Assembly: GCA_965197905.1 (NCBI GenBank)
Contig: CBDAOB010000004.1
Location: 1,812,878-1,876,877 of the forward strand
DNA from: Candidatus Latescibacterota bacterium
GTDB lineage: Bacteria > Latescibacterota > UBA2968 > UBA8231
DNA length: 64,000 bases
Direction: 5' to 3'
The notes beneath the pieces are model-generated. The model ran no database searches, was not told where the DNA came from, and saw only the letters and a program-made list of their open reading frames with translations. Of the stretch, positions 3,164 to 29,387 are shown in pieces. The stretch's first letter is position 1; each line of letters starts with the position of its first letter. The position numbers were made by a program, and so were the translations under genes.

Positions 3164-3176
3164 TTGGTAGAAACAG

Positions 3177-3324: not shown

Positions 3325-5622
3325 GTGGCATCATGCCTACGACGGCGGGAGGGACCTCTAACGAGGCCAGCGAACTTCCGCGTGTGCGGTCACGAAGAGC
3401 GCTCAAACCGAATCGCCTTGCTCCTGGCGGTCGTCATCTTCTGCGGGACCCCGTGTTGGAGCCAGATGATGACCGGCATCGTAACCGACACGGCAGGCGC
3501 CCCGGTTCGCGGAGCCCGGGTGGTCTTTGAGGAAGTTCCAGGGGGCGATCGATTCCTTTCGATCACCGGAGAGCAGGGCGCCTTCGCGACGAATCTCGCC
3601 TTGTCACCCACCGTGATCGCCACCAACGCGGAAGCCCGTCCATCGTCCGTCGCGCTTTACCAGAATCATCCAAATCCGTTCAATCCCGCCACCGTCATTG
3701 GTTTTTCACTCTCGCACGCGACTGCCACGCAGCTGGCCGTCTACAACATTCTCGGCCAACGGGTAAAAATTCTCGTCGACGACTGGCTGGCGCCGGGATT
3801 CTATGAGGCGACTTGGGACGGGACGAACCAGATTGGCGCAGGAGTGGCGGCCGGTGTCTATCTTTATCGTCTGGCGACGCCAACCTACGAAACATCTCGA
3901 AAAATGCTACTGCTGGATGGCACCGCCGCCGCCACCGGCGGCCGTGTGCAGGCGACAAAGCAGCTGCCGGCAGCGCGACGAGCACAGCAGCGGGTTTTCC
4001 AGGTCAGAGTGACCAGTGCTCGGATCGAACCCCACACAGTGGACCCCTTCGTAGTGGAGGACGATACAGCTCTGGAGATTGAGGTGGAGCGTCGTGGAAG
4101 GCAGCTGGTGGTGGAAGATATGGACGGCGACGGGCAATCAGACCTCCTCACCCTGCTGGATGGGGACGAAGCGCTGGAAACACACGTTCAGGATCTCGAC
4201 CTGAACCATCAATTGGACAGTTTTGTGTTTGTTCGCGAGCAGGTCGCTGCCTCGGGGGCGCTCGTAACCAGCGAGACCCGGATTGCGGAAACAACCGACA
4301 GCGTATGGGTCAGGTCGAGTTTTACGATCGAAGCCACCGGCATGGGACCCTCGGTGCTGAGCTTTCGCCTGCAGCCGAAAGAAAGTGTCCTCAGCAGTCT
4401 GGATCTTGAGGACCCGGAGCGAGTCATCCGAGAGGCGTCCAGTCTCGTACCTAGTATCGTGGCCGCCGACAACGGGTGGTTGCAGCTGCAAATTCCGAAC
4501 GTCTTGGCGCCGGACGCGCACCAGATCGATTACTTCGGCGGGCCGCAGATCACCGTTCTCGAAGCGGATTCCGTGATCCAATGGTCTTTCCGCGACGAGG
4601 CTCGCCGCGATGTGGAGTATGCGGTGGCGGCGTTGGAAGGGACCGCATCAGGTCCAGAACCACCCATTACCTTCCAGATCGAGAGCAGCTTCCCCCTCAG
4701 CCGGGACCATCTCCAGGTGCATGCAGTGTCTCCCGAGGTGGGGGTGGTTGAACTGCAGCCGCTCCTGGAAGTCCAACGCCAACGACGTCTAAACGGAAGG
4801 GCGGTATGGGAGCACATGGTAGCGGTTAACTGGCAGCCCCCCAATAAGGGACTCTACCGTCTGATCCTGCGGATCGAGAAGGAGGGGGTGGTGGTGTCCG
4901 AAAGCCTGATATGGCATCTACAGACCCGACGACCGCCGCTGGAACTGAACCTGATTGGTGGAGCGCGGCACCTGATGGTGCACGTGGCGAGTGGTCCGTT
5001 TACCATGGGCTCCGACCGAGGATTCGCCAACGAGCGACCCCAGCACCGCGTGGAGCTAGAAGGGTTCTATCTCGACCGCACTGAAGTTACGAACAAGCAG
5101 TGGAACGCTTATGCTGCTTTTCTGGGCATTTCACTGAAGCAGGGGCTTGACGACCACCCTGTCGTAGACGTCAGCTGGTCTGAAGCCGCCGAGTACTGTC
5201 GCTGGGCGGGATTGCGATTGCCGACGGAGGCGGAGTGGGAAAAAGGAGCCCGTGGGGTCGAAGCCCGGACCTACCCGTGGGGGGAGTCGATCAGCGGCAG
5301 GCAGGCCAATTATGTTGACAGCGGCGATCCCTTCGACAACAGTACCACGCCCGTGGGACTCTTCCCCGACGGGAGTTCCCCTTCTGGAGCCCTGGACATG
5401 GCAGGGAACGTGTGGGAGTGGGTGGCGGATTGGTTCGACGAAAGGTATTACGCCTCCAGTCCGGCACGCAATCCACCAGGCCCTTCCAGTGGGCCGGGAA
5501 GGGTGCTTCGGGGGGGATCGTGGATAAACCTTCCGCTGAGTTTGCGGACCACCCATCGCGGCGGCCGGGAGCCGATGGATCGCACTGACTTCATCGGATT
5601 TCGCTGCGCCCGCGATGAATAG
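3325..5622 (+). CDS. Secreted protein with internal FlgD-Ig/T9SS-CTD-like beta-sandwich domain and C-terminal FGE-sulfatase (SUMF1/EgtB-type) domain
   Basis: N-terminal hydrophobic signal-like segment (start may be GTG ~3382). 'NHPNPFNPATVIGFSL...AVYNILGQRV...YEATWDGTNQIGAGVAAGVYLYRL' matches the por_Secre_tail/FlgD-Ig fold but lies near the N-terminus. C-terminus has FGE-sulfatase motifs 'RLPTEAEWEKGARG', 'YPWG', 'GNVWEWVADW', 'RVLRGGSW', 'GFRCARD'. Confidence 0.7.
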   Translation: MASCLRRREGPLTRPANFRVCGHEERSNRIALLLAVVIFCGTPCWSQMMTGIVTDTAGAPVRGARVVFEEVPGGDRFLSITGEQGAFATNLALSPTVIATNAEARPSSVALYQNHPNPFNPATVIGFSLSHATATQLAVYNILGQRVKILVDDWLAPGFYEATWDGTNQIGAGVAAGVYLYRLATPTYETSRKMLLLDGTAAATGGRVQATKQLPAARRAQQRVFQVRVTSARIEPHTVDPFVVEDDTALEIEVERRGRQLVVEDMDGDGQSDLLTLLDGDEALETHVQDLDLNHQLDSFVFVREQVAASGALVTSETRIAETTDSVWVRSSFTIEATGMGPSVLSFRLQPKESVLSSLDLEDPERVIREASSLVPSIVAADNGWLQLQIPNVLAPDAHQIDYFGGPQITVLEADSVIQWSFRDEARRDVEYAVAALEGTASGPEPPITFQIESSFPLSRDHLQVHAVSPEVGVVELQPLLEVQRQRRLNGRAVWEHMVAVNWQPPNKGLYRLILRIEKEGVVVSESLIWHLQTRRPPLELNLIGGARHLMVHVASGPFTMGSDRGFANERPQHRVELEGFYLDRTEVTNKQWNAYAAFLGISLKQGLDDHPVVDVSWSEAAEYCRWAGLRLPTEAEWEKGARGVEARTYPWGESISGRQANYVDSGDPFDNSTTPVGLFPDGSSPSGALDMAGNVWEWVADWFDERYYASSPARNPPGPSSGPGRVLRGGSWINLPLSLRTTHRGGREPMDRTDFIGFRCARDE

Positions 5623-5731
5623 GCGCGGCCTTCAACCGCGAAAAATTCCGACCTAAAACTGGCAATCCCTTGAACCGGTTGTGGTTACCCGAATCCCTGA
5701 CACCCACGCCCCATATATCACCAACTTTTTG

Positions 5732-5760
5732 TTGCTATGGGCGTATCAGCGCCGTATCAT
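5732..5760 (+). promoter_or_regulatory. Candidate sigma70-type promoter for the sigma-factor gene (TTGCTA-N17-TATCAT)
   Basis: Sits in an AT-rich 230-nt non-coding leader, spacing 17 nt, about 90 nt upstream of the ATG at 5853. Confidence 0.3.
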
Positions 5761-5852
5761 AACATTGATCTATTCACACCGAGTCGCGACCCATTCCGAC
5801 CGTCAGGGCCGCCGTTTCGGCACGTTCCTCAAAACCAAAGAATAGGGGCTAT

Positions 5853-6704
5853 ATGCAAGATAGCTTGGGTGATAGGGAAAGCACGTTGCGGCTCTATTTC
5901 GACGACATTGCCGATTCCAGACCGCTCTCGCGCGAGCGCGAGGTGGAGTTGTCGGCCCGAATACAGGACGGCGACATGCAGGCTCGGGATGAATTGGTCC
6001 AGGCAAATCTTCGTTTCGTGATAGACGTTGCCAAGAACTACCAGAATCGAGGGTTGCCGCTGGCGGATCTGATCAGTGCTGGAAATGTCGGACTGCTGAC
6101 CGCCGCCGACCGCTTTGACGGCACCAAAGGGTACAAATTCATCTCCTACGCGGTCTGGTGGATCAAACAGTCCATTCTGCAAACGATCGCCGAACATGCG
6201 CGTACCGTGCGACTGCCGATGAACAAGGTGAGCTTGCTCAAAGACATCTCCAAGACCTCTCGCCGCCTTGGTCAGGGCCGCGAAGCCGAACCCCGCATCG
6301 AAGAAATTGCCGCGGAGCTGGAGGTGCCCGCTGAGGAAGTGCTAGAAACCATGTTGAGCGCGCGCGCCGTGCGCTCGCTGGACGAATCCTTCGAAGAGGA
6401 TGATGAGCGCAATCTGTTGAACATCTTGGCCGATACTACCCAAGACAATCCTGACGCGGACGTGTTGTGTGAGTCCGCCAAAGATCAGTTGGAGAGCGTG
6501 CTCAACAGTCTGGATGAACGAGAGCTGCGCATTATCAGGCTCTATTTCGGGTTGGACGGTCACGAAGCTTTGACCCTGGAACAGATCGGCGATCTCATGG
6601 GTGTCACCCGTGAGCGCGTGCGTCAGATCAAGGAACGAGCGCTCAGTCGGCTCCGCCATCCTTCGCGGCATCAGTTCCTGCGCGCGCTTACAGAAGACGT
6701 ATAA
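5853..6704 (+). CDS. RNA polymerase sigma factor, sigma-70 family (group 3-like: FliA/WhiG/SigB class by size)
   Basis: 283 aa; region 1.2/2 'LYFDDI...ANLRFVIDVAKNYQNRGLPLADLISAGNVGLLTAADRFD...YKFISYAVWWIKQSI', region 3, and region 4 HTH 'LTLEQIGDLMGVTRERVRQIKERALSRLR'. Noticeably lower GC than neighbouring genes. Confidence 0.85.
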   Translation: MQDSLGDRESTLRLYFDDIADSRPLSREREVELSARIQDGDMQARDELVQANLRFVIDVAKNYQNRGLPLADLISAGNVGLLTAADRFDGTKGYKFISYAVWWIKQSILQTIAEHARTVRLPMNKVSLLKDISKTSRRLGQGREAEPRIEEIAAELEVPAEEVLETMLSARAVRSLDESFEEDDERNLLNILADTTQDNPDADVLCESAKDQLESVLNSLDERELRIIRLYFGLDGHEALTLEQIGDLMGVTRERVRQIKERALSRLRHPSRHQFLRALTEDV

Positions 6705-6751
6705 TCGAGGACTCGGCTCCGCCACGGACACTTCAATCTGTCTCTATCGAA

Positions 6752-6786
6752 ACGGCACTGCGGTTGCGACCGCGGTGCCGTTTTCC
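6752..6786 (+). terminator. Rho-independent terminator after the sigma-factor gene
   Basis: 13-bp stem ACGGCACTGCGGT / ACCGCGGTGCCGT (one mismatch), loop TGCG, followed by TTTTCC. Confidence 0.6.
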
Positions 6787-6807
6787 TTCTAACCCGCTGA
6801 CAATATC

Positions 6808-7704
6808 ATGGATCAGATTTCGATTCTTCTTTTGCTGGGAATCGTACTATTCCTCGCCTTACTCGCCTATTTCGTGCCGCTGGGGTTGTGGATCAGCGCG
6901 TTCTTCGCCGGGGTGAAGGTGCAGATCTTCAAAGACCTGGTGGGCATGCGACTGCGAAAGGTACCCCCCGTGGCCATTGTGCGTCCGAAAATCAGCGCCA
7001 CCAAAGCCGGGCTGCAGGTCGATCTGGACCGTATGGAAGCCCACTATCTGGCAGGCGGAAATGTCGAAGCGGTAATCCTGGCGTTGATCTCCGCAGATAA
7101 GGCAAATATAGATCTTGCCTTCGAGCGGGCAGCCAGCATCGACCTGGCCGGACGCGATGTGCTGGAAGCGGTCAAGGTCAGCGTCAACCCAAAGGTCATC
7201 AATACCCCGCTCATCACTGCGGTAGCCAAGGACGGTATTCAGGTGAGAGCAACCTGTCGCGTCACCGTGCGTGCCAATATCGATCGCTTGGTGGGAGGCG
7301 CCGGGGAAGAGACGATTATCGCCCGTGTCGGCGAGGGCATCATCACCAGTATCGGATCTTGCAACAGCCACAAACAGGTGCTGGAAAGCCCAGACCTGAT
7401 CTCGAAAACGGTGCTGGCCAAAGGACTGGATTCCGGTTCGGCCTTCGAGATTCTATCCATCGATATAGCGGATGTGGATGTGGGAGAGAATATCGGTGCC
7501 AGTCTGCAGACCGATCAGGCCGAGGCTGACTTAAAAATTGCTCGCGCCAAAGCGGAGGAGCGACGCGCGATGGCCGAGGCGCGTGAGCAGGAGATGACGG
7601 CGTTGGTGGAAGAGATGAGTGCGCGGGTCCGGGAAGCGGAAGCCGAGGTTCCCAAAGCCTTAGCCGAGGCGTTTCGTTCGGGCAACCTGGGCTCCTTGTC
7701 CTGA
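6808..7704 (+). CDS. floA: Flotillin-like protein FloA, second paralog (C-terminally truncated relative to copy 1)
   Basis: ~85% aa identity to the 1489..2478 product over 295 aa, but many synonymous nucleotide differences. Ends ...RSGNLGSLS* and lacks the conserved [10 protein letters not shown]... tail. No NfeD partner genes adjacent. Confidence 0.8.
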
Positions 7705-7734
7705 TCTCGTCGGTCAATCCAGGGTTTCGGGAGA

Positions 7735-9504
7735 TTATTCGCGTACTACAGCCAGGGTGCGCTGATAGGTGCGGCCATTGGCTTCTAGGACGTAATAATA
7801 GACACCGCTGGCGACGGCTTCTCCATCCTGATTGGTTCCGTCCCAGGTGGCCGCAAAAGAACGTGCCGAGCGCTGGCCCTGTTCCAGCACACGAACCAGT
7901 TCCCCCGTTGCTGAAAAGATCGATATCCTGGCGTCGTCGCTGGCTTCGTCCAGTGCGTACGGGATTAAGGTTGTTTCGAGTCCGTGAATTCGGAACGGGT
8001 TTGGTCGATTTTGTTCCAAACGAAATACCTGCGAGTCGGTGCCACCCCCCAGAAGGTTGGGATCGTACTCGGCGGCCACATTGTATTCGAAACCGGCGCC
8101 GGACTGCTCAAGGCTGCTGAGAACGACAACGATCTCGTCAAACTGGTCCCAATCCTGGATCTCGACTCTGTTCGCATCGGCGTCACGAATCTCGACGGCG
8201 TCCCGCGAAATCAACAGCAGTTGTCGTTTCCAGTTTCCCTCTTCCGTATTTAGTTCGAGAGCCACACCCCCGCTTTGCAGCTGCGGGTCCAGCTTCAAGT
8301 AAGCACTTCCCGTGTGATCCACCTGGCCACTGTCGGCCACGGCGACTTTGGACGCGGTTCGCAGGGTTTGCGTCCGCACTTCGCCATACTTTTCGCCTTC
8401 GGAGTAGAACATGCCGGAACGGTGGTTGACCCCGGTGAAGTAATTCCACACGGCGTATTCCCCTATGGCCGCCGCCAACCCGCCGGGAATCCACTGGCGA
8501 ATGGCGCGCTCGAAATTTACCAGGCGAGCGTGATTGCTGACGGCCATCTCGTCCCACACCAACCGAATCAAATCGCGACCAAAACGCTGATCGAGAAAAT
8601 GTGCGAAAAGGGCGCTTCCGTAGATGCGCGTTTCCACGGTGAAGTTTCCACTTCCCAACGCGCGCTCGGGCCGGCGGAGCACACTGGGCACGTACTGCAA
8701 GTAGTCGTCCACTTCGGGGTAGGCCACCTCCTCCATCCAGGTTGCCGACGCCTCCTGCCACCACACTCCGTTTCTCCCGGCGTAGTAGGAGAACTGTACC
8801 CCGTGAAAGAATTCATGTGCCAGGGTGACGTGCAGGGCATCCAATCCGCGGGTCTGAACATATACGGGATCGGTAAAATTGTTGTCGATCTCGAAATAGA
8901 CCGGCGTCGTATTCCCAGAGAGCTCGGGGAAGGCATAGCCGTACACTCCGGAGCCGCTCAAGTCAGTCAGATACACATCGTATTCGTTTCCGCCGCCGAC
9001 GCTGCCGTCTACTAATGGAGCCCGATACCCAAGGTCCACCACCTCAAGTTGCCAGGAGCGTTCCAATGTGGCTGCCGTCTCATCTATATAGTCCGGTATC
9101 GCGTTGTCATCCTCGTCACTGGGATCTACGCCGTGGCGACCCTCCACGTCGTAGTGCAGGCGAAAACGACCGGAGGCGGTCACCAGACTGTTCGCTCTCG
9201 ACGGGCGCTGCAAAGTGCGGGCGAGTTTCGCCCGAAACGAGACACTCAGCTCCGGCGCCGCCTGTTGAGCAGCGACGAGGGCAGGGGTGCCACAACGCGG
9301 GTGCAGGTTCGTCGGGGACGGACGAAACGCCTGCGGCAGGGAATCCGGGTCACGGACAGCGTAGACTTCGTACAGAAGGGCGGTCTCGTAATCCAAAACT
9401 CCGGATTCGAAGGCTTCGCTTACCAGTGTGCCCGCATGGGCGGGGGCACCCAAACTTCCCAGGCAAAAGCTGCAAACAACAAGGGGTCGAAACACGTGCA
9501 CCAA
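7735..9504 (-). CDS. Secreted zinc metalloprotease (HExxH) with C-terminal T9SS-type sorting domain
   Basis: Signal peptide MVHVFRPLVVCSFCLGSLGAPAHA; 'VTLAHEFFHGVQFSYY' HExxH zinc-binding motif. C-terminal ~90 aa 'NRPNPFRIHGLETTL...SIFSATGELVRVL...ATWDGTNQDGEAVASGVYYYVL' matches the por_Secre_tail/FlgD-Ig CTD pattern. Confidence 0.65.
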   Translation of the reverse strand: MVHVFRPLVVCSFCLGSLGAPAHAGTLVSEAFESGVLDYETALLYEVYAVRDPDSLPQAFRPSPTNLHPRCGTPALVAAQQAAPELSVSFRAKLARTLQRPSRANSLVTASGRFRLHYDVEGRHGVDPSDEDDNAIPDYIDETAATLERSWQLEVVDLGYRAPLVDGSVGGGNEYDVYLTDLSGSGVYGYAFPELSGNTTPVYFEIDNNFTDPVYVQTRGLDALHVTLAHEFFHGVQFSYYAGRNGVWWQEASATWMEEVAYPEVDDYLQYVPSVLRRPERALGSGNFTVETRIYGSALFAHFLDQRFGRDLIRLVWDEMAVSNHARLVNFERAIRQWIPGGLAAAIGEYAVWNYFTGVNHRSGMFYSEGEKYGEVRTQTLRTASKVAVADSGQVDHTGSAYLKLDPQLQSGGVALELNTEEGNWKRQLLLISRDAVEIRDADANRVEIQDWDQFDEIVVVLSSLEQSGAGFEYNVAAEYDPNLLGGGTDSQVFRLEQNRPNPFRIHGLETTLIPYALDEASDDARISIFSATGELVRVLEQGQRSARSFAATWDGTNQDGEAVASGVYYYVLEANGRTYQRTLAVVRE

Positions 9505-9609
9505 TCTACTCCGATCGATAACCAGCCGAAAGATATCCGCTGCGAGCCCGGCGCCGTTGATGTATGTTAAAGGCTACACCGAGCGGCCACAGCGCCGCCT
9601 CGCGGACAA

Positions 9610-10437
9610 ATGCACAAACAGACGATGACCAAAGCGCGATCGGTGTTTCTGATCGCCGCCTTCTGCAGCATAGGGTGGTTTTGTTCAAACTCTCCCAAAG
9701 CGGACGAACCTGAGAAGAGTCCGGTTCCCCCGCCTATGGAGAATCTGACGCCGGTGTACTCCTACCGCGTGGTGGATTCCTACACCCACGACCTGCGGGC
9801 GTTCACCCAGGGGCTGGCGATCGCAAACGGAGCACTCTACGAAAGTACAGGGCTGTATGGCGAGTCCACATTGCGCCGGGTCGATCTGGCAACGGGCGAG
9901 GTCCTGCAAATCCGTTCCCTTCCCGATTCCCTATTCGGGGAAGGGATCGCCGTTTGGGAAGAGCGGATTATTCAGGTTACCTGGCGCTCGCGCATGGGGT
10001 TGGTGTACGATCGTGACTCCTTCGAGTTGTTGCAGCAGTTCCGTTACGACACCGAGGGGTGGGGATTAACCCATGACGGCGACCGCCTGATACTCAGCGA
10101 CGGTAGCTCCACACTCTATTTCTTGGACCCGAATTCGTTCGCCGAACTCGGGCGCTTGGCGGTACACGACAGCGACGGCCCCGTGACCCTACTGAACGAA
10201 TTGGAGTATGTCGGCGGCGAGGTGTTCGCAAACATCCTGCAATCAGACCGCATCGCTCGCATCGACCCAAAAAGCGGCAAGGTGACCGGGTGGATCGACC
10301 TGGAGGGCCTCCTTGCCGAGGTTCGAGGGTCCAACGCCGTGGGGGTTTTGAATGGGATCGCCTATGACGAAGCCCGTAACAGACTCTATGTAACGGGGAA
10401 GAACTGGCCGCAGCTTTTCGAGATCGAGCTGCGGTGA
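9610..10437 (+). CDS. Glutaminyl-peptide cyclotransferase (glutamine cyclotransferase, beta-propeller type), lipoprotein
   Basis: Lipobox-like signal (LIAAFCSIGWFCSNS); motifs 'HDLRAFTQGL', 'TGLYGESTLRRVDL.TGEVL', 'GEGIA..', 'YVTGKNWPQLFEI' typical of the plant/bacterial QC family (PF05096). Confidence 0.75.
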   Translation: MHKQTMTKARSVFLIAAFCSIGWFCSNSPKADEPEKSPVPPPMENLTPVYSYRVVDSYTHDLRAFTQGLAIANGALYESTGLYGESTLRRVDLATGEVLQIRSLPDSLFGEGIAVWEERIIQVTWRSRMGLVYDRDSFELLQQFRYDTEGWGLTHDGDRLILSDGSSTLYFLDPNSFAELGRLAVHDSDGPVTLLNELEYVGGEVFANILQSDRIARIDPKSGKVTGWIDLEGLLAEVRGSNAVGVLNGIAYDEARNRLYVTGKNWPQLFEIELR

Positions 10438-10441
10438 TCGG

Positions 10442-11353: not shown

Positions 11354-11395
11354 TGGAATGGCGGCGACCGAGAGCCACGACCGGAGGAGGTGGAT

Positions 11396-11998: not shown

Positions 11999-12089
11999 GG
12001 AGCCGCTGCCAACTTGTGGTTTGCACTAGGCTTCCTTACTATATTTTCCTTAAACCGGCAGGCACTTTTTCTACGGTATGAACTGAGTC

Positions 12090-13331: not shown

Positions 13332-13368
13332 CCAGGCTTCTCCAAGCCTCACAGTCGATCTGCGAACC

Positions 13369-13400
13369 GGCTTACCGCACCACTGTGTAGGCCTTTTTTT
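13369..13400 (+). terminator. Rho-independent terminator after the REC-HDOD gene
   Basis: Stem GGCUUAC/GUAGGCC (7 bp, one G.U) with an 11-nt loop, followed by a T7 tract (13394..13400). Confidence 0.5.
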
Positions 13401-13971
13401 GTGCCTCCTGTTACACACCGGGGTAGGGGCGCAGTACGAAGCCGAAGTCACAGCAGAGCGCCAGTCGAATTTCTACCTCTCCGCTGGCCTAGGCCTGCTC
13501 ACCGTAGGCACTAAGGCAGGCATTGCCATTCCGGCCGGATTCATGGCGGTGCTTTCCCCTTACCGGTTGCTGGTTTCCGCCAGCGCGATCGATATCGGGC
13601 TTCTGGAAGGAGACTCCAAGGATCCGCGGTACGAGCGTTTATTCGTGCCGGGGGGCTCCCAAGCCTGCCTGGATCGAGAGACCGGTTTTCTTGTTTCGGA
13701 TTTTCGTTGTTCTGGAGGGACCGTCCTCCGAGGCTCGACCGGTGCCGATCTCAGCGTCATACCCATAGAGAATCTTTGGCTCGGAAACCAACCGGGCAAC
13801 CTGTTCACCGGTGTCGGCTTTCGTGCCTTCAACCCGAAGACGGCCTACGTCACCTTCGGCCTGGTGTTCAATTCGCAGACGGAAAAAGCAGGCGGATTCA
13901 AGGTCAATATCGGCAGCGACTACGTGTTTGTCGGTATCCTCGGAGGGTTCAACCTACGCCGATGGTTCTGA
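13399..13971 (+). CDS. Hypothetical protein, possible small outer-membrane beta-barrel (start uncertain)
   Basis: Alternating hydrophobic beta-strand pattern and C-terminal '...FNLRRWF' aromatic terminus. The ORF in the track (13222) overlaps the upstream gene and its terminator, so the real start must be downstream (TTG 13399 or later). No clean signal peptide seen. Confidence 0.3.
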   Translation: MCLLLHTGVGAQYEAEVTAERQSNFYLSAGLGLLTVGTKAGIAIPAGFMAVLSPYRLLVSASAIDIGLLEGDSKDPRYERLFVPGGSQACLDRETGFLVSDFRCSGGTVLRGSTGADLSVIPIENLWLGNQPGNLFTGVGFRAFNPKTAYVTFGLVFNSQTEKAGGFKVNIGSDYVFVGILGGFNLRRWF

Positions 13972-13990
13972 ACGTGCCCTCGCCGTTGTG

Positions 13991-15050
13991 ATGGCGGGTC
14001 GCATCGCCTGCCGCCGGTACCGCTGCGCACGCAACATCGCCTTCGCCGCCTTGAGCCTGCTGTTCGCCGCAGACGGAAACAGCCAGACGCTTCCGCCGGA
14101 GACCCACCCCAGCCTGTTGTTTACCGCCGCTGAGCTACCTCTACTAAAGAGCCGCATCGCGCGCGCTCCGTACTCGAGTTGGTGGCAAACGACGCTGCAA
14201 CGCGCGCAAACCGTTCCCGATACCGTAACCGTAGAGCGATCGAAGGCCCGTTACGCCAAGAGCCTGGCGTTTGCCTATCTCATGACCGACGACGAGAGCT
14301 TCGCACGGTTACGATATGTTGCACGAGTTCGTGAGCGCGGATGCTGCCTCACTGGCCGCGGTGCGCGGTCTCCTCGCCGAGGAAGCGGCGCGGTTGATGA
14401 AGGGTATTGTCGTGCAGGAGATCAACCTCGGTTTCGTGACCATCAAGCTGCGTCTGCACGAGACGCCCCACATCGACAACTGGCATCTGCGGGCGTACGG
14501 TGGGCTGGGGTTTGCCGCCCTGGCACTGGCGGATCATCCCGGCGTCGACGACAAAACCCCCCAAGATTGGTCTGACCGGGCAGTGGATCTGTCCAGCCGC
14601 ACCCTGGAGTATCAGATAGACCCCGTGGACGGCGGCTACGCCGAGGGTCCGTTCTACAGCCGCTACGCCGCCGATGTTTACCTGCCATACTTGATCGCCA
14701 TGAAACGTCTCACCGGACTTGATCTCATCGACGCGCCGATCGTGCGCAAGATGCACGACTGGTCGGTAAACATCCGCTTGCCCAATGGACGCCGACCAAA
14801 CATCGACGACGGCCACCTGGACGAATTCTACGGTCATTACCTGGCCGCTGTCGACGACGACGGTCCGGTGCATCTTTGGGACTGGCAAAACAACGAGACC
14901 GGGCTGTACGTGCGGGAGTTTTCAGAGCTGGATGCTATTGCGCTCTACGACGACCGCATCGAACCCCAGGAGCCCACGCAAGGACCGACGATCTTCATGC
15001 CGGAGGCCGGAGATGCGGTCTTCCGCAACGACTGGTCGGCCGACGGGATC
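13991..15050 (+). CDS. Heparinase II/III-like polysaccharide lyase, exon 1 (signal peptide + N-terminal alpha-toroid part); apparent +1 frameshift near 14286-14316
   Basis: Signal peptide MAGRIACRRYRCARNIAFAALSLLFAADG. Coding potential switches from frame 2 (13991..~14310) to frame 0 (14286..15050) inside an overlap of two track ORFs. Exon ends ...FRNDWSADGI immediately before GTGCG at 15051. Confidence 0.45.
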
Positions 15051-17191
15051 GTGCGCCACGAGGCGCCAGAGAACCGGGTGGGATGCAAGGACCCACCAAC
15101 GGGCTGTCGCAGCAGCCCGTTGAAGCTGGAGGCAGCCTGACCCTGGGAGCGCAGGGGAAGGTGGAAGCAGCCTCGACAACGACAGAGTGGAGTGGCACCT
15201 CCAGACACTCCACGTCTGGCAAGCAAGACGGAATGGTGTAACCCGAAGTGAACCAGTGATGGAACCCCCTTTAGCGGCCCGCCAACCCAAACCTGGTGGA
15301 TAAGGGTTGGTACGCAACGCACGTGGTCGGATATATGACCGACTGCGACTCTGGGGAGGTGTGATACCCACCGAAGCAGAGGCCTTGGAGAATGCCTGCG
15401 GCGTACCCAAGGCGAAGTTGCAGGGGAAAAGCTGGGCACCTCCCCCGTCAAACGGTTCATGGTGAACGTGGGAACCGAGCCGAGTCCGACCGTTATCGGG
15501 GCAGCGCGCTGTCCGCTGTGGGGCTTGGCAAGGGACGGAGCCTCTGTAGTAGTCCGCGAGCGGGAAAGCCGCTTACATGGCGAAGGGAGGCAGCAAGTTG
15601 CGCAGTGGGGTACTGGAAAAACAGGAGGACGCCGGTGAATGCCAGCGCTTCGTGGCCCGAGGCAGAACAAGCCCGTAATCGAGTACTGGAAATCCAGACC
15701 AAACTGCACCGTTGGGCTGTAGAGGATCGAAGCAAGTGCTTCGACGACCTGTTCAACCTGGTGTGTGACCCGGCGTTTTTGAGTGTAGCCTGGCGTCGGG
15801 TGCGCAGCAACAAGGGTGCTCGTTCGGCCGGAGTGGACGGACAAACGGCCTACTCTGTGGAGACGGAACGCGGCGAGGAGGCCTTTCTCGCCGAGGTGCG
15901 GGTTGATCTGAAGACCCGCAGTTTCCGGCCTCTGCCCGTACGCGAGCGGTTGATTCCGAAACCTGGCACAACGAAGAAGCGCCGGCTCGGCATCCCAACC
16001 GCTCGGGACCGAGTGGTCCAAGCCGCACTCAAGCTGGTGCTCGAACCGATCTTCGAAGCGGACTTCAAGCCGTGCTCCTACGGCTTCCGCCCGAATCGGC
16101 GGGCTCAGGACGCCATCGCCGAGATTCATCAATTCTGCTCCCGCTCTTATGAGTGGGTGGTGGAGGGCGATATCCGTGCTTGTTTCGATGAGATTGATCA
16201 CGCAGCCCTCTTGGACCGCGTGCGTCGACGTATCGGTGATAAGCATGTTCTGAGGCTTGTAAAAGCGTTCTGCAAGGCCGGTGTCCTCACGGAACAATCG
16301 GTGTTGCAAGAAAGCACTTCGGGCACTCCGCAAGGCGGTATTCTCTCACCGCTGGTGGCAAATATCGCCTTATCCGTCCTCGACGATTATTTCACTGAGG
16401 TCTGGAGAAAGGTGGGCGCTACCTCCAGTGCGCGACAAGCGCATCGGCGAAAGGGGCTACCGACTTGTCGGCTTGTCCGTTACGCTGACGATTTCGTGCT
16501 GCTGGTGGCGGGCACCGAAGCTGCAGCGTATGACCTGCGCGACCAAGCGGGGGTGACTCTCACCCCCATGGGTCTGCACCTGTCGGAGACGAAGACCGCC
16601 ATCACGCACATCAGCCGTGGCTTCGATTTCCTGGGTTTTCGCATTCAGAAGCGACGGAAACCGGGCCCGGTTGGCGCACGCATCTATACGTGGCCAAGAA
16701 AGGAATCTCTGGCCCGGTTGAAGAGCACGGTGCGCGCAGTCACGAGAACGGGTCGGCAGAGGCCGTTGAAGAGCCTTCTGCGCCAACTCAATCCGGTGTT
16801 GCGGGGGTGGGCCAACTACTTTCAGTACGGGGTGTCGAAGGCCACTTTCAACTACGTGCGGGGCTTCACTTGGCGCCGCGTAGTGCATTGGCTGCGCCGC
16901 AAGCACCCGCGCTTTAATTGGAGGAAGCTGAAACGCCGCTACCTGCCAGGATGGTGGCCCACCGAGGACGGGATTGCTCTTTACAACGTCGGCGAAGTAG
17001 CAGTGACTCGTTACCGCTATCGATCGGCGCGGATCCCTTCTCCCTGGCCTGCGACAACCGGATGAGACTCTGCGGTCACACGGCACCTTGTGGAGAGCCG
17101 GATGCGTGGTAACGCGCACGTCCGGTTCGGAGGGCGGGCCGGAGAAACCCACATCACGCGTGTGGCGCAGGGCGCTCCGGTCCGACCCTAC
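15051..17191 (+). mobile_element. Group II intron (bacterial, En-minus RT type) interrupting the lyase gene
   Basis: 5' end GTGCGCC (consensus GUGYG). Domain IV carries the RT/maturase ORF. Domain V at 17095..17128 is GAGCCGGATGCGTG-GTAA-CGCGCACGTCCGGTTC (AGC triad, GNRA loop, 2-nt bulge). Domain VI at 17131..17190 has bulged A at 17185 and ends ...CCUAC. The 3' boundary is ambiguous between 17191 and 17194 because of a TACTAC repeat; either choice keeps the host frame. Confidence 0.8.
15635..17065 (+). CDS. Group II intron-encoded reverse transcriptase/maturase (no endonuclease domain)
   Basis: RT blocks including 'RLVRYADDFVLLV' (YADD), 'FLGF', and maturase/X domain 'LLRQLNPVLRGWANYFQYG'; ends right after the thumb domain with no HNH. 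AGGAGG RBS at 15623..15628 followed by GTG at 15635; the track ORF extends spuriously upstream to 15392. Confidence 0.8.
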   Translation: MNASASWPEAEQARNRVLEIQTKLHRWAVEDRSKCFDDLFNLVCDPAFLSVAWRRVRSNKGARSAGVDGQTAYSVETERGEEAFLAEVRVDLKTRSFRPLPVRERLIPKPGTTKKRRLGIPTARDRVVQAALKLVLEPIFEADFKPCSYGFRPNRRAQDAIAEIHQFCSRSYEWVVEGDIRACFDEIDHAALLDRVRRRIGDKHVLRLVKAFCKAGVLTEQSVLQESTSGTPQGGILSPLVANIALSVLDDYFTEVWRKVGATSSARQAHRRKGLPTCRLVRYADDFVLLVAGTEAAAYDLRDQAGVTLTPMGLHLSETKTAITHISRGFDFLGFRIQKRRKPGPVGARIYTWPRKESLARLKSTVRAVTRTGRQRPLKSLLRQLNPVLRGWANYFQYGVSKATFNYVRGFTWRRVVHWLRRKHPRFNWRKLKRRYLPGWWPTEDGIALYNVGEVAVTRYRYRSARIPSPWPATTG

Positions 17192-18571
17192 TACATGCTG
17201 CTGCGCGGCGAGCATGGTCTCACCCGCAACCGGGGACTGGCGCACGAGCATGCCGACGAGACCAGCTTCATCATCTACGCTTTTGGAGAGATGCTGGCTG
17301 TGGATGCGGGGTATATCAACTTCACCAACCACCACAAGGTCAATGCTGGTCGCAATCACAACGTCATCCTGGTGGACGGTGAAGGGCCGCCGCTGTTCGT
17401 GGATCCGTTGATCGGCGAGTCCATCGGCGGCGGCAACAACGCGTTTATCGAGGAGTTTTTCAGCACCGAGCACCAGGACTACGCGGAAGTGCGCGCCCAG
17501 TACGGCGGCGTCGACCTGCGGCGGCGGGTGATGTTTCCCGGAAAACAGTATTTCATTCTGGCCGATGAGGTGCGCGATCTCGAGGTCCACCAGTACGAAT
17601 GGCGTCTCCACGGAAACGGGGGTGGAGACACCGGTGCTGACTATTCCCGTGCCGGCCCCTTGGCGCGCTGGGTCCGACCCAAAGCACAACTGGTCGCCTT
17701 CGTCGTCCCCCAGGACGAACTCACGTTGGCCGAAGCCGACACCGTCCATTCCTTCACGTTTAGCCAGGAGAAAACCCATACCTTTCTGCAGGCTCAGACC
17801 ACCGGTAGCAACGTGGAGTTTCTATCCGTATTGGTTCCCGGGGCAAGCGGAATGCCGATGCCCTCCTTCGATGTCGGCAGCGCAACCGGCGCCCAAGCTG
17901 TGCACATTGAAGGGGACGGATTCCGCGATCTGGCGTGGGTCGCCGAGCACGGCGCCGACTCCATTCTGGTCGAAGATCAAAGCGGCAGTGTCCGCACCGA
18001 CGCCCGCTTTGGACAGCTCCGCTACGAAGGCGATCTGTTGCGGTCTTACACGATTCAGGACGCCAGCTTTCTGCGCGTCGGGACGGAGGAGGTCTTCAGT
18101 GCCGCAGATACGGTCGATCTTTCCTTCAACTTCGACGAGGGTGGCCTACGGGGGTTTGTCGCGGCGGCGGACGGTGGGGTCGAGATCCTGATACCCGTGT
18201 CCGCTTCGGCGCTGGATTCGTTGCAATTCGACGGGACGCTGCTTGACAGTAGTCTCGCCGCGGGGCGACTGAGCCTGAGGATTGCCGGTGCAGGCCGTCT
18301 TGTGGTGCGTACCCAACCAACACCAGCGGACACCGTCGGAGGAGAGTCAAGCGGTCAGACGGCGGCAGCGGAGGAGGCGGGCTCTGCTGCCGAACCGGGG
18401 GATTTCGACCACAGCGGTCTGGTCGACCTGGAGGACTTCAGCTTGTGCGCCCAGGCATACGACTCCAACGCAACGACAGCGACGGCGACTTTCGATCTGA
18501 ACGACGACGGCAGGATAGATTTCGAGGATTTCTTCCTCTTTGCGGATCTCTTCCCGCAGTCCGCTCCGTAA
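17192..18571 (+). CDS. Heparinase II/III-like lyase, exon 2 (Hepar_II_III beta-sandwich domain + C-terminal dockerin-like repeats)
   Basis: 'HEHADETSFIIYAFGEMLAVDAGY' His/Asp signature of the Hepar_II_III domain. C-terminal 'DFDHSGLVDLEDF...FDLNDDGRIDFEDFFLFADLF' looks like two Ca-binding dockerin-type repeats. Frame is continuous with exon 1 once the intron is removed. Confidence 0.55.
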   Translation, partial: YMLLRGEHGLTRNRGLAHEHADETSFIIYAFGEMLAVDAGYINFTNHHKVNAGRNHNVILVDGEGPPLFVDPLIGESIGGGNNAFIEEFFSTEHQDYAEVRAQYGGVDLRRRVMFPGKQYFILADEVRDLEVHQYEWRLHGNGGGDTGADYSRAGPLARWVRPKAQLVAFVVPQDELTLAEADTVHSFTFSQEKTHTFLQAQTTGSNVEFLSVLVPGASGMPMPSFDVGSATGAQAVHIEGDGFRDLAWVAEHGADSILVEDQSGSVRTDARFGQLRYEGDLLRSYTIQDASFLRVGTEEVFSAADTVDLSFNFDEGGLRGFVAAADGGVEILIPVSASALDSLQFDGTLLDSSLAAGRLSLRIAGAGRLVVRTQPTPADTVGGESSGQTAAAEEAGSAAEPGDFDHSGLVDLEDFSLCAQAYDSNATTATATFDLNDDGRIDFEDFFLFADLFPQSAP

Positions 18572-18596
18572 CAACAGCTTCCCGGCGGAGTGACTG

Positions 18597-19049
18597 CTAC
18601 ACCGCGGTCATCGCGTAGTTCAGAATCTCCACCACCTGCGCTGGCTCGGAAGCTACCGCCTGTGCGGCGGCGTCGACCTCCTTTAGCGGGTGCCGAAGGT
18701 CAGGCGGATGCAGCACAATCAGCGGCTTGTTCAGGGCGAAGGCGTATCCGGCATCGAAAGCGGCATTCCACTGCCGGTACTCTTCGCCAAATTTCACCAC
18801 CACAACATCGCAATCGCGTATAAGCGTGCGCGTGCGAATGGCGTTGATCTTGCCCCCTTTGTGATCGGTCCAGAACGAATCCTCTTCGGGGCCGAGAATG
18901 TCGACACCGCAACCATCGCTGGCGCCATGGTCCATCACCGGCGCGAAGAACAGCACGTCGAGCTCTGCCTCCTCGGCGCCCTGAGTAATTTGCTGGCGCC
19001 AATCGCTGTGCACTTCGCCGGCCAGATAAACCTTCCATTGCTTTGACAT
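18597..19049 (-). CDS. YtoQ-family protein (nucleoside 2-deoxyribosyltransferase-like fold)
   Basis: 150 aa; 'KVYLAGEVHSDWRQQI', 'FFAPV.DHGASD', 'NAIRTRTLIRDCDVVVVKFGEEYRQWNAAFDAGYAFALNKPLIVLHPP' is collinear with the Bacillus YtoQ family. Confidence 0.7.
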   Translation of the reverse strand: MSKQWKVYLAGEVHSDWRQQITQGAEEAELDVLFFAPVMDHGASDGCGVDILGPEEDSFWTDHKGGKINAIRTRTLIRDCDVVVVKFGEEYRQWNAAFDAGYAFALNKPLIVLHPPDLRHPLKEVDAAAQAVASEPAQVVEILNYAMTAV

Positions 19050-19248
19050 CTCGCTCCCCCACGGTTTGGTTGTCGGCTGCCGGCATCGCGTCTATCGACG
19101 CGGCCGTGACGCTCGCATCGTCATTGTGCCGATACACGAAAAAAATAGTAGGATTCGGCTGTGAGTGGCGCAATTCTTCTTGCCGCTTACCGTTCGGCCT
19201 CCTATGTTCTGTGCATCGAATCAGGCGGTTTCATCAAGGAGGTCGGCG

Positions 19249-19551
19249 ATGAAGTCTGCAATCGAGCTGGCAATGGAAAAAGCGGATGGTGCAGTTGATG
19301 GTGACGACTACGTCAAATTAACTCCGGAACAGGTACAGGCTATTGATCAGGTGACGAAGGAGTACGAAGCCAAGTGGGCTGAGCAAGAGATCATGGTAAA
19401 GGGCAAGTTGGAAAAGATGCAACGGGAGGTCGATCCGCAGACCATGGCCGAGCATCAACGGCAGTTCCAGAACGAGATCAACCAGTTGCGCGAGCAGATA
19501 TTTACCGAACGCGACAGCAAGATCGAAAAGATTCGTCAACAAGCTACATAA
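19249..19551 (+). CDS. Hypothetical charged coiled-coil protein (~100 aa)
   Basis: GGAGG RBS 8 nt upstream of the ATG at 19249; highly charged K/E/Q-rich sequence. The track ORF starts earlier (19165) but lacks an RBS there. A hairpin plus T-tract lies downstream (~19572..19608). Confidence 0.45.
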   Translation: MKSAIELAMEKADGAVDGDDYVKLTPEQVQAIDQVTKEYEAKWAEQEIMVKGKLEKMQREVDPQTMAEHQRQFQNEINQLREQIFTERDSKIEKIRQQAT

Positions 19552-19616
19552 CAGAGTTTTCGAGAGGCGGGCAGAAGCGGGAAGGTCTACGGACCGACCC
19601 GCTTTTTGTTGGCCTA

Positions 19617-21980
19617 CTATAGGCTGCGGGCACAGCGGAAGCCGATGGTGTAGTCGAAGCGGGAGTTTGGTCCATAAGCGAGGCGGTTGGTGGCCAGATG
19701 GATGTGGGGGTTCTGGTCGGCCAGCGAACCCCCTCGCAGGACCTTGAGCCCGGCCTCGCCAGCCTCGGTGTTCAGCGGGTCTCGAGTCGGACCGGTCACG
19801 TAATAGTCCCGCGACCACCAGTCGGCCACCCATTCCCACACATTGCCCGACATATCGAGCGCTCCGTACGGACTTGCTCCTCGCAGTTTCGAACCCACCG
19901 GCCAGGTGCTCTCCTGTCCGCACCCGTCGCCGCCGTCATCCATGACGATCCAGTCGCAATCGGGATCTTCATCGCCCCACGGGTAGCGCTGACCCTCCGT
20001 GCCGCGGGCCGCTTTCTCCCATTCCGCCTCGGTGGGCAAGCGCTTATTCGCCCACCTGCAGTAGGTGTTGGCCTGAAACCAGGTGACGGCGTTGACCGGG
20101 TGCAACGCCCGTTCCGGCTTTCCCCAGTTGGTGAAGTCGCCTTCGAAGTGCAGCCGATACGCCTCCGGCCCGCTGTACGGTTCGCTACAGGACCTGTCGT
20201 GGACGCAGGCCTCGTATTCGGCCACGGTGACTTCGTGCCGGTCAATATGGAAGGCGCTGACGAAAACCGTGCGCTCAGGCCGCTCGTCGCCGGCGCCCCG
20301 TTCGGCTCCCATGCGGAAGGGACCGGCCGCTACCAAAACCATTTCCTCCAGGTCGACAGGAAGCACCGCGCCCGCCACGGGAACATCCCCCTCCTGGCGT
20401 TGTACAAAGCGGTTTCTCTGGCGCCAGTCTGAATGCCTTCGAGCTGCGGATTCGATGCCCGGATCCGGCACCTGAGTGGCGGCAATAGTGGGACCGGAGG
20501 TGGCACAGCGCACCCCCACATACGGGTACCATCGCAGGGGCGGCATGCGGTAACGGTTTGCGGCGCGCATGTCCGGGTCCGGATCGACGTAAAACCAGCC
20601 ATTGCCGCGCAACACTTTGCGACTTCCGTCTCCCAGGTGCACCGGGTTTTCCACCGGAGCCTTGGCATAATAGCTGCGGTCGTAGTCGTCCATGACCCAC
20701 TCCCAGACATTTCCGGCCATATCCAGCAGGCCGTACGGACTTGCACCCAAAGGCCGTCCTCCCGCGGGACCGGTGCCATCATGCCCACAGCCCAGTCCCA
20801 AACCCGCACGCATCATGATGGCGCGGTCGCAATCGCCCGCTCCGCCAGGCGGGGTGTTCCCCCACGGGTAGCTAAACCCAAAGGTCCCCCGCGCCCCTTT
20901 CTCCCACTCGGCCTCCGTCGGCAGCCGCATTCCGGCCCAACTGCAATAACGCGAGGCATCGAACCAGCTGATACAGTTGGCCGGATGGTCGTCACGGTCG
21001 TCCCGTCCCCAGTTGCACGCCTCGCCGCTGGCCGCTTCGGGACAGGCGCCCGCTTCGACACACCGTCGATACTGGGCTTGGGTTACCTCGAGTTGCTGCA
21101 GGAAATACCCGTCCAGGAATACCGCGTGGGGGGGTGATTCATCCTGGTACTTTTTACTGCCCATGGTGAACGAACCGCCGGGTACGCCCAACAGCAGGGC
21201 CGATTCGCCCGACGGCAGCGGTTCATTGCGCCGTCCCAAAGAAACGGTGAGTTGGGTATCGAACTCCCGGGCAAACGGCTGGACATTCTCCCTCCGCAGG
21301 GTCTCGATCCCGATCCCCGACACCTCGACGTCGAAGCGCGCTTGCACGACCGCCTTGGGAGACCAGCTGCCCGCAGAGTGCCGATTCGTGCTCCCGTCCA
21401 ACAGGGTCAGCTTTCGACTCGCCGCGAATTCTCCCGCCACCAGGCGATAAAAATAGACCCCGGCGGCCACGGCCTGGCGCCGATCGTCTGTTCCGTCCCA
21501 AACGATTCGATAGGTGCCAGCGGACAGATCTTGATCAACGAGGCGCCGCACCCGCCGACCGAGCAGATCGTAGACCTGGAGCCCTACCTGGGTTGAATGG
21601 GACAAGTGGAACGGGATGACCGCCAGGGGATTGAACGGGTTGGGAAACGCGAAACCCAGCTGGGTCTTGGCATAGTTGGGGGAGCGTGAGGAGGAACTGC
21701 TGATGGACGTGGCAACGTCGGGAAGGGAGACGACGTAGGAACCGCTGGCAGTTGTCCGCGTCTCAAACAGGTCGCCGGAACCCTGGTCGATAAATCGCAC
21801 TGTAACCCCGGCCACCGGGTGCCGATCAAGATCGAGCCGAACCGTGCCCAAAACCTCGAACCCCCAACTGGGCAAGGCCATCCCCACTAAGACGAGGAAG
21901 TTTGCTGGACAGTGCCACCGGAGGGTTCTACTTTTCAGCAGATCGAACACCGTATCTTCTTTTTCTTCAACCAGTTCCAT
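19617..21980 (-). CDS. Secreted protein with internal FlgD-Ig/T9SS-CTD-like domain and two tandem FGE-sulfatase domains
   Basis: 'FPNPFNPLAVIPFHLSHSTQVGLQVYDLLGRRV...WDGTDDRRQAVAAGVYFYRL' beta-sandwich near the N-terminus. Two FGE-sulfatase repeats, each with 'RLPTEAEWEKxARG', 'YPWG', 'GNVWEWV', 'VLRGxxW', 'GxRCA'. Paralog of the 3325..5622 product. Start/signal peptide uncertain. Confidence 0.7.
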   Translation of the reverse strand: MELVEEKEDTVFDLLKSRTLRWHCPANFLVLVGMALPSWGFEVLGTVRLDLDRHPVAGVTVRFIDQGSGDLFETRTTASGSYVVSLPDVATSISSSSSRSPNYAKTQLGFAFPNPFNPLAVIPFHLSHSTQVGLQVYDLLGRRVRRLVDQDLSAGTYRIVWDGTDDRRQAVAAGVYFYRLVAGEFAASRKLTLLDGSTNRHSAGSWSPKAVVQARFDVEVSGIGIETLRRENVQPFAREFDTQLTVSLGRRNEPLPSGESALLLGVPGGSFTMGSKKYQDESPPHAVFLDGYFLQQLEVTQAQYRRCVEAGACPEAASGEACNWGRDDRDDHPANCISWFDASRYCSWAGMRLPTEAEWEKGARGTFGFSYPWGNTPPGGAGDCDRAIMMRAGLGLGCGHDGTGPAGGRPLGASPYGLLDMAGNVWEWVMDDYDRSYYAKAPVENPVHLGDGSRKVLRGNGWFYVDPDPDMRAANRYRMPPLRWYPYVGVRCATSGPTIAATQVPDPGIESAARRHSDWRQRNRFVQRQEGDVPVAGAVLPVDLEEMVLVAAGPFRMGAERGAGDERPERTVFVSAFHIDRHEVTVAEYEACVHDRSCSEPYSGPEAYRLHFEGDFTNWGKPERALHPVNAVTWFQANTYCRWANKRLPTEAEWEKAARGTEGQRYPWGDEDPDCDWIVMDDGGDGCGQESTWPVGSKLRGASPYGALDMSGNVWEWVADWWSRDYYVTGPTRDPLNTEAGEAGLKVLRGGSLADQNPHIHLATNRLAYGPNSRFDYTIGFRCARSL

Positions 21981-29366: not shown

Positions 29367-29387
29367 TCTGGGCGGGGGTATCTGCAA

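Follow-up and report, generated by a model that had tools for sequence, protein, structure and literature searches.

The 64-kb stretch of DNA analyzed here, referred to as the window, stems from Candidatus Latescibacterota, part of the superphylum Fibrobacteres-Chlorobi-Bacteroidetes (FCB), and has a GC content of about 60%. Its nearest genome is the complete Candidatus Latescibacterota metagenome-assembled genome OZ244235.1. The window encodes two proteins, p1 and p2, that carry a domain resembling type IX secretion system (T9SS) sorting domains of type A near the N-terminus, followed by one or two domains of the fold known from formylglycine-generating enzymes (FGEs). The p2 orthologue in OZ244235.1 is 90% identical. 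Both open reading frames (ORFs) listed in a preliminary description of this DNA, 3325-5622 on the plus strand (p1, 765 aa) and 19617-21980 on the minus strand (p2, 787 aa), are indeed present. The p1 ORF probably opens too early, because a GTG at 3382 starts a typical Sec signal peptide whose coding sequence is kept in orthologues, and this GTG is thus the likely start rather than position 3325. The p1 gene (3382-5622, +) then encodes a signal peptide, a nested N-terminal module (N-module), an orphan middle region and one FGE-fold domain, while the p2 gene (19617-21980, -) encodes a signal peptide, the N-module and two FGE-fold domains.

Signal peptides were judged by eye from the sequence and from conservation in orthologues. 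That of p1 (3382-3465, +; aa 20-47, VCGHEERSNRIALLLAVVIFCGTPCWSQ) reads ...IALLLAVVIFCGTPCWSQ when translated from GTG 3382, and its coding sequence, ending ...CWSQ, is also found upstream of the mis-called orthologue starts in L088 and L089 as well as in P0122. For p2, ATG 21980 or GTG 21950 is the likely start; P0003, which shares 95% identity with p2, begins at the equivalent of GTG 21950, and classical signal peptides open nearly all p2 orthologues. In addition, many Cys residues of the p2 FGE pair are invariant among orthologues, a pattern that is consistent with disulfides and fits an oxidizing compartment. Export of p1 and p2 is well supported by these sequence features, in agreement with the earlier assignment of both as secreted proteins.

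In both proteins, the signal peptide is followed by the N-module, in which three segments, D1 to D3, can be distinguished. In p2, D1 (21705-21860, -; aa 41-92) corresponds to the N-terminal half of a CarboxypepD_reg or transthyretin-like domain, D2 (21393-21680, -; aa 101-196, ending ...SRKLTLLDG) to a FlgD_ig/T9SS type A C-terminal domain (CTD)-like beta-sandwich, and a linker plus D3 (21207-21392, -; aa 197-258) to the C-terminal CarboxypepD_reg half. The same order is apparent in p1, with D1 at 3466-3609 (+; PF13620 at aa 50-93, profile positions 3-47 of 82), D2 at 3640-3921 (+; ending ...SRKMLLLDG) and a flexible linker plus a putative D3 at 3922-4110 (+), the assignment of which follows from homology to D3 of p2 and is weaker than in that protein. 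FlgD_ig matches are located at aa ~127-183 and amount to 30.3 bits for p2 and 24.7 bits for p1, the latter below the Pfam cut-off of 27, and TIGR04183, the NCBIfam model for T9SS type A sorting domains, yields 28.6 bits for p2 and 22.9 bits for p1, just under the cut-off of 23. Weaker Pfam matches to CHU_C and Por_Secre_tail were found in the same region near both N-termini. When the N-modules were compared with the window by tblastn, they retrieved only each other and the C-termini of two neighbor genes (E values from 3e-11 to 6e-13). A FlgD-Ig/T9SS-CTD-like domain near the N-terminus had been described for both proteins; similarity far beyond chance and the FlgD_ig and TIGR04183 matches place it in this family and not in an unrelated fold.

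The CarboxypepD_reg halves on either side of D2 had been overlooked in the preliminary description, as had a 283-aa orphan region in p1 and the absence of a catalytic Cys pair in the FGE-fold domains. In both proteins a partial CarboxypepD_reg match precedes the FlgD_ig match. Since D1 covers only the first half of the CarboxypepD_reg profile, D3 follows the sequence pattern of the second half and removal of D2 in silico raises the score, the N-module appears to be built as a transthyretin-like domain from whose central hairpin an entire sorting-type domain protrudes, attached via two flexible linkers. Deletion of D2 from p2 increased the CarboxypepD_reg score from 24.8 to 30.4 bits and extended profile coverage from positions 2-47 to 2-68, and the same operation brought P0129 (39.7 bits) and P0133 (36.1 bits) past the Pfam cut-off for this family. 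An AlphaFold 2 (AF2) model of the N-module (pLDDT 86) features three beta segments, the middle one being D2. The module was found at the N-terminus behind a signal peptide in 26 clusters retrieved with p1, and 18 of these carry passengers other than FGE domains, including leucine-rich repeats (LRR), propellers of the PD40/Kelch type, a GSDH-like domain and an M23 peptidase. Judged from these architectures, the N-module is not specific to FGE proteins.

T9SS targeting has been described as dependent on a C-terminal domain. To relate D2 to such domains, 56 N-terminal copies were aligned with 96 true C-terminal copies of the sorting-type domain. The consensus of the N-terminal copies, ...LGQNYPNPFNPSTVIPFQLP...VYNILGQRVRTLVD...WDGTDDAGRAVAAGVYLYRL...SRKMTLLDG, is nearly identical to that of the C-terminal copies, ...LYQNYPNPFNPTTTIRFSLP...IYNILGQKVRTLVD...WDGRDDAGRAVASGVYFYRL...SRKMLLLK-COOH, and the motif-E Lys as well as the surface motifs occur at the same frequencies in both. 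The sole systematic difference is located at the end: C-terminal copies stop one residue after LLL (...RKMLLLK-COOH), whereas in N-terminal copies (...RKMxLxDG) the final Lys is replaced by a near-invariant Asp-Gly, behind which a linker with many Gly, Ala, Ser and Pro residues begins. True C-terminal sorting domains are present in the window itself, i.e., in a metalloprotease of the MXAN_6640 type with an HExxH motif (7735-9504, -; FlgD_ig sorting domain ~7738-8004), which served as the C-terminal reference, and in a C25 peptidase described below. Alignments with both neighbors revealed that D2 alone is shared with p1 and p2, which rules out relocation of a CarboxypepD_reg plus sorting-domain tandem from the neighbors' C-termini. 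The C-terminal type of the domain dominates the loci of other FCB phyla, i.e., Cloacimonadota, Zixibacteria, Eisenbacteria, WOR-3 and Fibrobacterota.

The extreme C-terminal placement by which T9SS cargo is recognized is not found in p1 and p2: the domain occupies aa ~101-199 of 765 and 787 residues, respectively, and both proteins end with an FGE domain (...GFRCAR(DE/SL)) and contain no second sorting domain. From this position it had been concluded that the domain cannot act as a T9SS export signal. That statement is an assertion rather than a proven point, as the nested domain keeps the published features of CTDs: the T9SS signal is a folded CTD (PMC11611037), secretion depends on the exposed surface motifs B, D and E and on the motif-E Lys (PMC10202324), the full consensus including this Lys is kept in D2, and the C-termini of Porphyromonas gingivalis CTDs tolerate short His-tag extensions without loss of function (PMC11285876).

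With regard to the passengers, Pfam FGE-sulfatase (PF03781) matches once in p1 (aa 551-763, E 9e-59; domain at 4975-5613, +) and twice in p2 (E 6e-106; domain a at 20499-21197, -, aa ~262-494; domain b at 19626-20351, -, aa 544-785), in line with the number of domains noted previously. An AF2 model of full-length p2 (pTM 0.75) exhibits the FGE fold and superposes as a fold on FGE, PvdO and PorK; Foldseek matches 2Q17 and 6MUJ with E values of about 1e-18. The copper-binding, catalytic Cys pair of genuine FGEs is not conserved in any of the three domains. When domain b of p2 is aligned with the FGEs from T. curvata and S. coelicolor (6S07, 6MUJ), FLCHESYC is replaced by LADQNPHI (conserved as ADQNxxIH), and by motif position the same site reads WFYVDPDP in domain a (conserved as WxYxDPxPD) and WINLPLSL in p1 (RGGSWINLPLSLR...). 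Each replacement is conserved within its family. The pair is absent in every member of the p1 and p2 families that was checked, including both FGE domains of the p2 family, and a CxxxxC motif at the catalytic site was found in 0 of 149 FGE domains of related proteins. Since all three domains lack the pair, p1 and p2 are not formylglycine-generating enzymes; the domains are conserved units that are non-catalytic as FGEs and probably bind a ligand. Of the substrate-binding or modifying role suggested before, binding thus stays plausible and formylglycine generation does not. Likewise, RLPTEAEWE, YPWG and GNVWEW, which had been read as CxPxR-binding motifs, are general motifs of the FGE fold and do not speak for CxPxR binding.

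The models for related families all scored far below their cut-offs and matched only the shared, C-terminal FGE-like part of the profiles. This applies to EgtB (TIGR03440, 108 and 156 bits for p1 and p2 vs. 360), NF041186 (99 and 162 vs. 420), PvdO (NF051459, 64 and 111 vs. 500) and GldK (TIGR03525, 92 and 141 vs. 350) and extends to SenA and OvoA. On the basis of catalytic residues and model cut-offs, membership among true FGE, EgtB, PvdO or GldK proteins was rejected. The public names of p1- and p2-type proteins (JGI, NCBI), "FGE required for sulfatase activity" and "SUMF1/EgtB/PvdO family nonheme iron enzyme", are generic and probably misleading. Outside the N-module family, the nearest relatives of the p2 FGE pair are tandem-FGE proteins of the Latescibacterota type without the module (P0033-P0042), followed by tandem FGE pairs on Ser/Thr kinases, caspase-like (C14) proteins and TIR proteins, which share 32-41% identity over the two domains. 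Classic variable regions of diversity-generating retroelements (DGRs) include C-type-lectin domains of the FGE type. A role of p1 or p2 as DGR target was ruled out, as no template/variable repeat is present at the 3' ends of the FGE sequences and orthologues show conservation of the C-terminal region; a single reverse transcriptase is encoded in the window, and this candidate DGR component is a group II intron maturase.

Both proteins share homology over the N-terminal ~225 residues (37% identity) and the FGE domains (40-44%), i.e., less than the ~45-50% given in the preliminary description, the conclusion of which nevertheless stands: p1 and p2 are old paralogues and not recent repeats, as is evident from low identity and from the absence of a DNA repeat linking the two genes beyond weak paralogue similarity. 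The inverted orientation of the two genes around a 14-kb block had been counted among the hints at a family of surface, substrate-binding or modifying proteins. Functional support for this bracketing was not found, and the arrangement is not a unit: it is plain synteny among close relatives, with no DNA similarity between both genes, so that an inverted repeat or mobile block is ruled out. Orthologues of p1 constitute only four protein clusters (58-97% identity), all of which occupy one syntenic slot between nfeD-nfeD-floA and sigma-floA, and in more distant genomes p2 and the adjoining C25 gene are located elsewhere without p1. We regard p1 as a younger paralogue, confined to a narrow lineage and equipped with one FGE domain and an orphan insert. 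This middle region (4111-4959, +; aa 263-545, 283 aa) is lineage-specific, bears an Asp-rich DGDG motif, matches no Pfam family and retrieved only 5 matches among 1.84 billion representative proteins in an exhaustive HMMER search. Searches with its Asp-rich stretch at aa ~276-310 (window 4150-4260, DMDGDGQSDLLTLLDGDE...) retrieved giant repeat proteins through short, repeated matches and FG-GAP with a weak score; the stretch may represent a calcium-binding motif.

The surroundings of p1 comprise two NfeD and two FloA flotillin-like genes (spanning 18-2478 and 6808-7704; FloA at 1489-2478 and 6808-7704). A sigma-70 gene (5853-6704) lies together with p1 between them, and this layout is kept in L088 and L089. 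Just upstream of p1, a tRNA gene is located at 3077-3160 (+; Rfam 62 bits); two ORFs that overlap this gene, 2885-3262 and 2914-3288, are probably not real.

Divergently from p2 and separated by a gap of 33 bp, a C25 peptidase is encoded at 22014-27518 (+); it, too, starts with a signal peptide and ends in a true C-terminal sorting domain (~27249-27515). A gingipain-like gene had been noted at this site; the adjoining C25 gene is real, and its product is closer to the sortase PorU than to a gingipain. It scores 315 bits against the NCBIfam PorU model NF033707 over profile positions 4-736 of 1095 and 253 bits against the PorU2 N-terminal model (cut-off 450), with most of each profile covered, and its best solved relative is PorU (6ZA2, 80 bits vs. 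45 bits for gingipain R). In 9 of 11 independent contexts the C25 gene is adjacent to or no more than 4 kb away from the p2 orthologue, namely in the window, L001/L009, L010, L002-5, L007, a JGI contig, an ENA contig, L090 and L091. In the linked contexts identity decreases from 90 to 46% for p2 and from 89 to 39% for the C25 protein, the length of which is ~1,830-1,925 aa. When L001 is compared with L002, the p2-C25 pair has flipped as one unit while the heparinase and ytoQ genes on its flanks serve as reference, which argues for selection on the pairing itself.

In L002, L007, L091 and the JGI contig, a recurrent gene cluster encodes the C25/PorU-like protein, a glycosyltransferase of the GT-C type (PMT_2), the tandem-FGE protein, a Kelch propeller, an SGNH/GDSL-like protein and citrate synthase. 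The Kelch propeller of these relatives has its own type A sorting domain (36 bits), and a Wzy_C protein is encoded near the p2-C25 pair in one locus. As judged from gene content, the C25/GT-C/Kelch/SGNH cluster may constitute a surface-attachment or glycoconjugate locus. A secretin gene is found near the p2-C25 pair in L001 and L090. In the window, a GspD/PilQ-like secretin of 860 aa, i.e., a protein related to envelope or secretion functions, is encoded at 29353-31935 (+).

Combining the observed domain content, loss of catalytic residues, motif conservation and gene linkage, we favor an explanation that we rate at about an even chance: p1 and p2 would be non-catalytic, FGE-fold binding proteins that dock onto outer-membrane components of a T9SS via the retained sorting-type domain, with the p2 family acting alongside a PorU-like sortase. 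The presence of a T9SS in Latescibacterota is itself something that we infer from sorting domains and the PorU-like gene. The predicted localization, docking partner, ligand and possible role with PorU are as follows. Both proteins would be exported via Sec as binding proteins of a C-type-lectin-like fold, and the mature N-terminus would be formed by the composite module with the sorting domain nested in the CarboxypepD_reg sandwich. Because none of the surface motifs found in genuine C-terminal sorting domains of this lineage is missing from D2, the domain most likely still docks on the same T9SS partner, a component of the PorV or PorU type. Docking could serve to anchor the protein at the outer membrane or else to translocate it. 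Canonical cleavage and transfer by PorU cannot apply, since what lies upstream of D2 amounts to a signal peptide plus one half of a small domain. The FGE-fold domains would then bind a ligand, glycan or peptide, in the p2 family together with the divergently encoded PorU-like C25 sortase, and the GT-C glycosyltransferase, the CTD-bearing Kelch propeller and the SGNH-like protein at many loci point to a step in cargo attachment or in the formation of a surface glycoconjugate. A bolder formulation strikes us as doubtful, i.e., that the nested domain is a working T9SS recognition module in new use, either a permanent docking handle or an N-terminal export signal, that it defines a hitherto unrecognized T9SS-associated class with FGE, LRR or beta-propeller passengers in FCB phyla other than Bacteroidota, and that PorU-like sortase or attachment machinery in Latescibacterota and relatives has a dedicated subunit or adaptor in the p2 family.

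Several observations weigh against docking on a T9SS and partnership with PorU. Conservation of the D2 motifs could stem from folding constraints and not from a shared partner. The C25 protein stays below the NCBIfam PorU cut-offs (315 vs. 420 bits); no linkage to a C25 gene was seen for p1 and two p2 paralogues from one sample (P0008 and P0019); the pair of the window, like that of the closest relative, does not have the genes for the glycosyltransferase, the Kelch propeller and the SGNH protein beside it; and the core T9SS genes porK/L/M/N, sprA and porV were not found within the 64-kb window. The nested-domain model, founded on the AF2 model and the deletion test, is supported but indirectly so, and nesting is less secure in p1 than in p2, as removal of D2 from p1 lifts the CarboxypepD_reg score from 21.7 to 27.7 bits without extending profile coverage.

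These observations feed the main rival explanation, which is not probable and nevertheless has to be reckoned with: p1 and p2 might be ordinary periplasmic or secreted binding proteins whose Ig-like and transthyretin-like domains are structural spacers acquired through domain shuffling from the abundant pool of sorting domains, with no T9SS link left, and adjacency to the C25 gene would reflect co-regulation or chance synteny of envelope genes. FlgD_ig is a generic Ig-like fold, for which Foldseek matches of the N-module range from pilins and complement components to FlgD, and the C25-free paralogues and the core genes not found in the window would fit spacers. What speaks for docking instead is that the N-terminal copies retain surface motifs and the motif-E Lys at the frequencies of true sorting domains across very different proteins, and that the C25 adjacency persists in orthologues as distant as 46% identity and has outlasted an inversion of the whole pair. 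Retention of the complete consensus without a second sorting domain in either protein would also suit a nested domain that functions in full as a T9SS export signal despite its unusual place, making p1 and p2 plain cargo that is released or displayed. The nature of the signal as a folded domain (PMC11611037) and the tolerated His-tag extension (PMC11285876) go in the same direction. We nonetheless consider this unlikely, as the extensions tested in the literature are short His tags and not a passenger of ~600 aa, cleavage of the PorU type upstream of the domain would release nothing useful and a published example was not found in the literature.

Enzymes of the SUMF1/EgtB/PvdO superfamily, for instance maturases of secreted sulfatases, are suggested by the JGI and NCBI names, by true FGEs as the relatives that rank first among solved structures, with about 30% identity, and by the many sulfatases encoded by Latescibacteria (PMC4454575). 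This assignment is very improbable given that the copper-binding Cys pair is missing in every domain, that a DinB-type iron domain is absent and that the EgtB, SenA, OvoA and PvdO models match far below cut-off with their C-terminal part only; moreover, published Latescibacteria genomes carry an anaerobic radical-SAM maturase instead (PMC4454575). Least credible of all is an equivalence to PorK/GldK or GldJ, the FGE-fold ring lipoproteins of T9SS. The common fold, the matched PorK structures, the GldK scores of 92 and 141 bits and linkage to a PorU-like gene would be in its favor, yet these scores are far under the cut-off of 350 and lower than those for FGE and EgtB, no lipobox Cys was seen by eye at the cleavage sites (...CWSQ and ...PSWG), the architecture differs and porL/M/N genes are not present beside any orthologue. 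Docking of non-catalytic binding proteins through the sorting-type domain remains the explanation that we prefer.

Other genes in the window include a heparinase II/III-like lyase gene (exons about 13928-15050 and 17192-18571) into which a group II intron of 2,141 bp (15051-17191, +) has been cleanly inserted. Within the intron, a reverse transcriptase/maturase is encoded by an ORF at 15392-17065, and Rfam yields a match to Intron_gpII domain V/VI at 17093-17191. In L001, the 90%-identical relative, the lyase gene (869 aa) is uninterrupted, and the flanks join at the same base as the intron site. Upstream of the intron, at ~14301-14310, the lyase frame shifts, and about 105 nt of the L001 sequence (aa ~128-158) are missing; this change is a deletion/frameshift or possibly an assembly error, and the gene may be a pseudogene even after splicing. 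A set of genes for an ABC transporter (38783-44487, -) resembles the gliding-associated GldA/F/G arrangement and consists of an ATPase (43720-44487), an ABC-2 permease (42975-43727), an ABC_transp_aux protein of 1,068 aa with a weak match to GldG (39808-43014) and a sub-threshold DUF4340 match (38783-39811). A protein of 847 aa with 14 PD40 repeats, again related to envelope or secretion functions, is encoded at 46934-49477 (+).

Reviews and a structural paper on T9SS describe C-terminal sorting domains only. Our literature search for T9SS sorting domains in N-terminal or nested position, for PorU partners with an FGE fold and for T9SS in Latescibacteria yielded no report, an absence that does not prove novelty. 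The individual parts, i.e., FGE fold, type A sorting domain and transthyretin-like domain, are known; missing from the literature that we consulted are the nested placement near the N-terminus, its repeated use with different passengers and the link to a PorU-like gene. At this locus a fully conserved sorting-domain consensus is present near the N-terminus within another domain, an arrangement that recurs with passengers unrelated to each other, and a genetic tie to a PorU-like sortase exists for one family. If the domain engages the secretion machinery, the rules for T9SS clients widen, tools that inspect only the C-terminus miss such proteins, a handle on T9SS attachment outside the Bacteroidota becomes available and many annotations as "formylglycine-generating enzyme" or "nonheme iron enzyme" need relabelling. 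If it does not, a tidy case of domain shuffling and an annotation correction are what is left.

Among known systems, the T9SS type A C-terminal sorting domains (TIGR04183/Por_Secre_tail, FlgD_ig clan), to which the uncleaved CTDs of PorU and PorZ also belong, provide the closest counterpart of D2, which is of the same family and shares the Ig-like beta-sandwich and the motifs PNPFNP, WDG, GVYxYRL and RKMxLL. In contrast to these CTDs, the domain of p1 and p2 is located near the N-terminus, is nested and has a passenger of 500-600 aa behind it, and the terminal Lys has given way to "DG" plus linker, so that processing in the manner of sortase cargo is inapplicable. The FGE-fold domains resemble SUMF1/FGE (2Q17, 6S07, 1Y1E) in fold, in RLPTEAEWE and GNVWEW and in sequence at about 30% identity, and they share with the inactive paralogue SUMF2/pFGE (1Y4J) the absence of the catalytic cysteines. 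Unlike SUMF1, they lack the LCHxSYC motif, contain additional disulfide-rich loops, are exported together with an N-module and, in p2, are duplicated. The tandem FGE domains of Ser/Thr kinases, caspase-like (C14) and TIR proteins are likewise devoid of the catalytic Cys pair; there, the FGE pair is situated behind a cytoplasmic effector or signaling domain, whereas p2 has no effector and features the nested N-module and linkage to C25 instead. PorK/GldK and GldJ, finally, have in common with p1 and p2 an FGE fold that does structural or binding work rather than catalysis in the context of a T9SS. They differ in their lipoprotein signal, in the porLMN operon and in architecture, and the scores of p1 and p2 are well below the cut-offs for these proteins.

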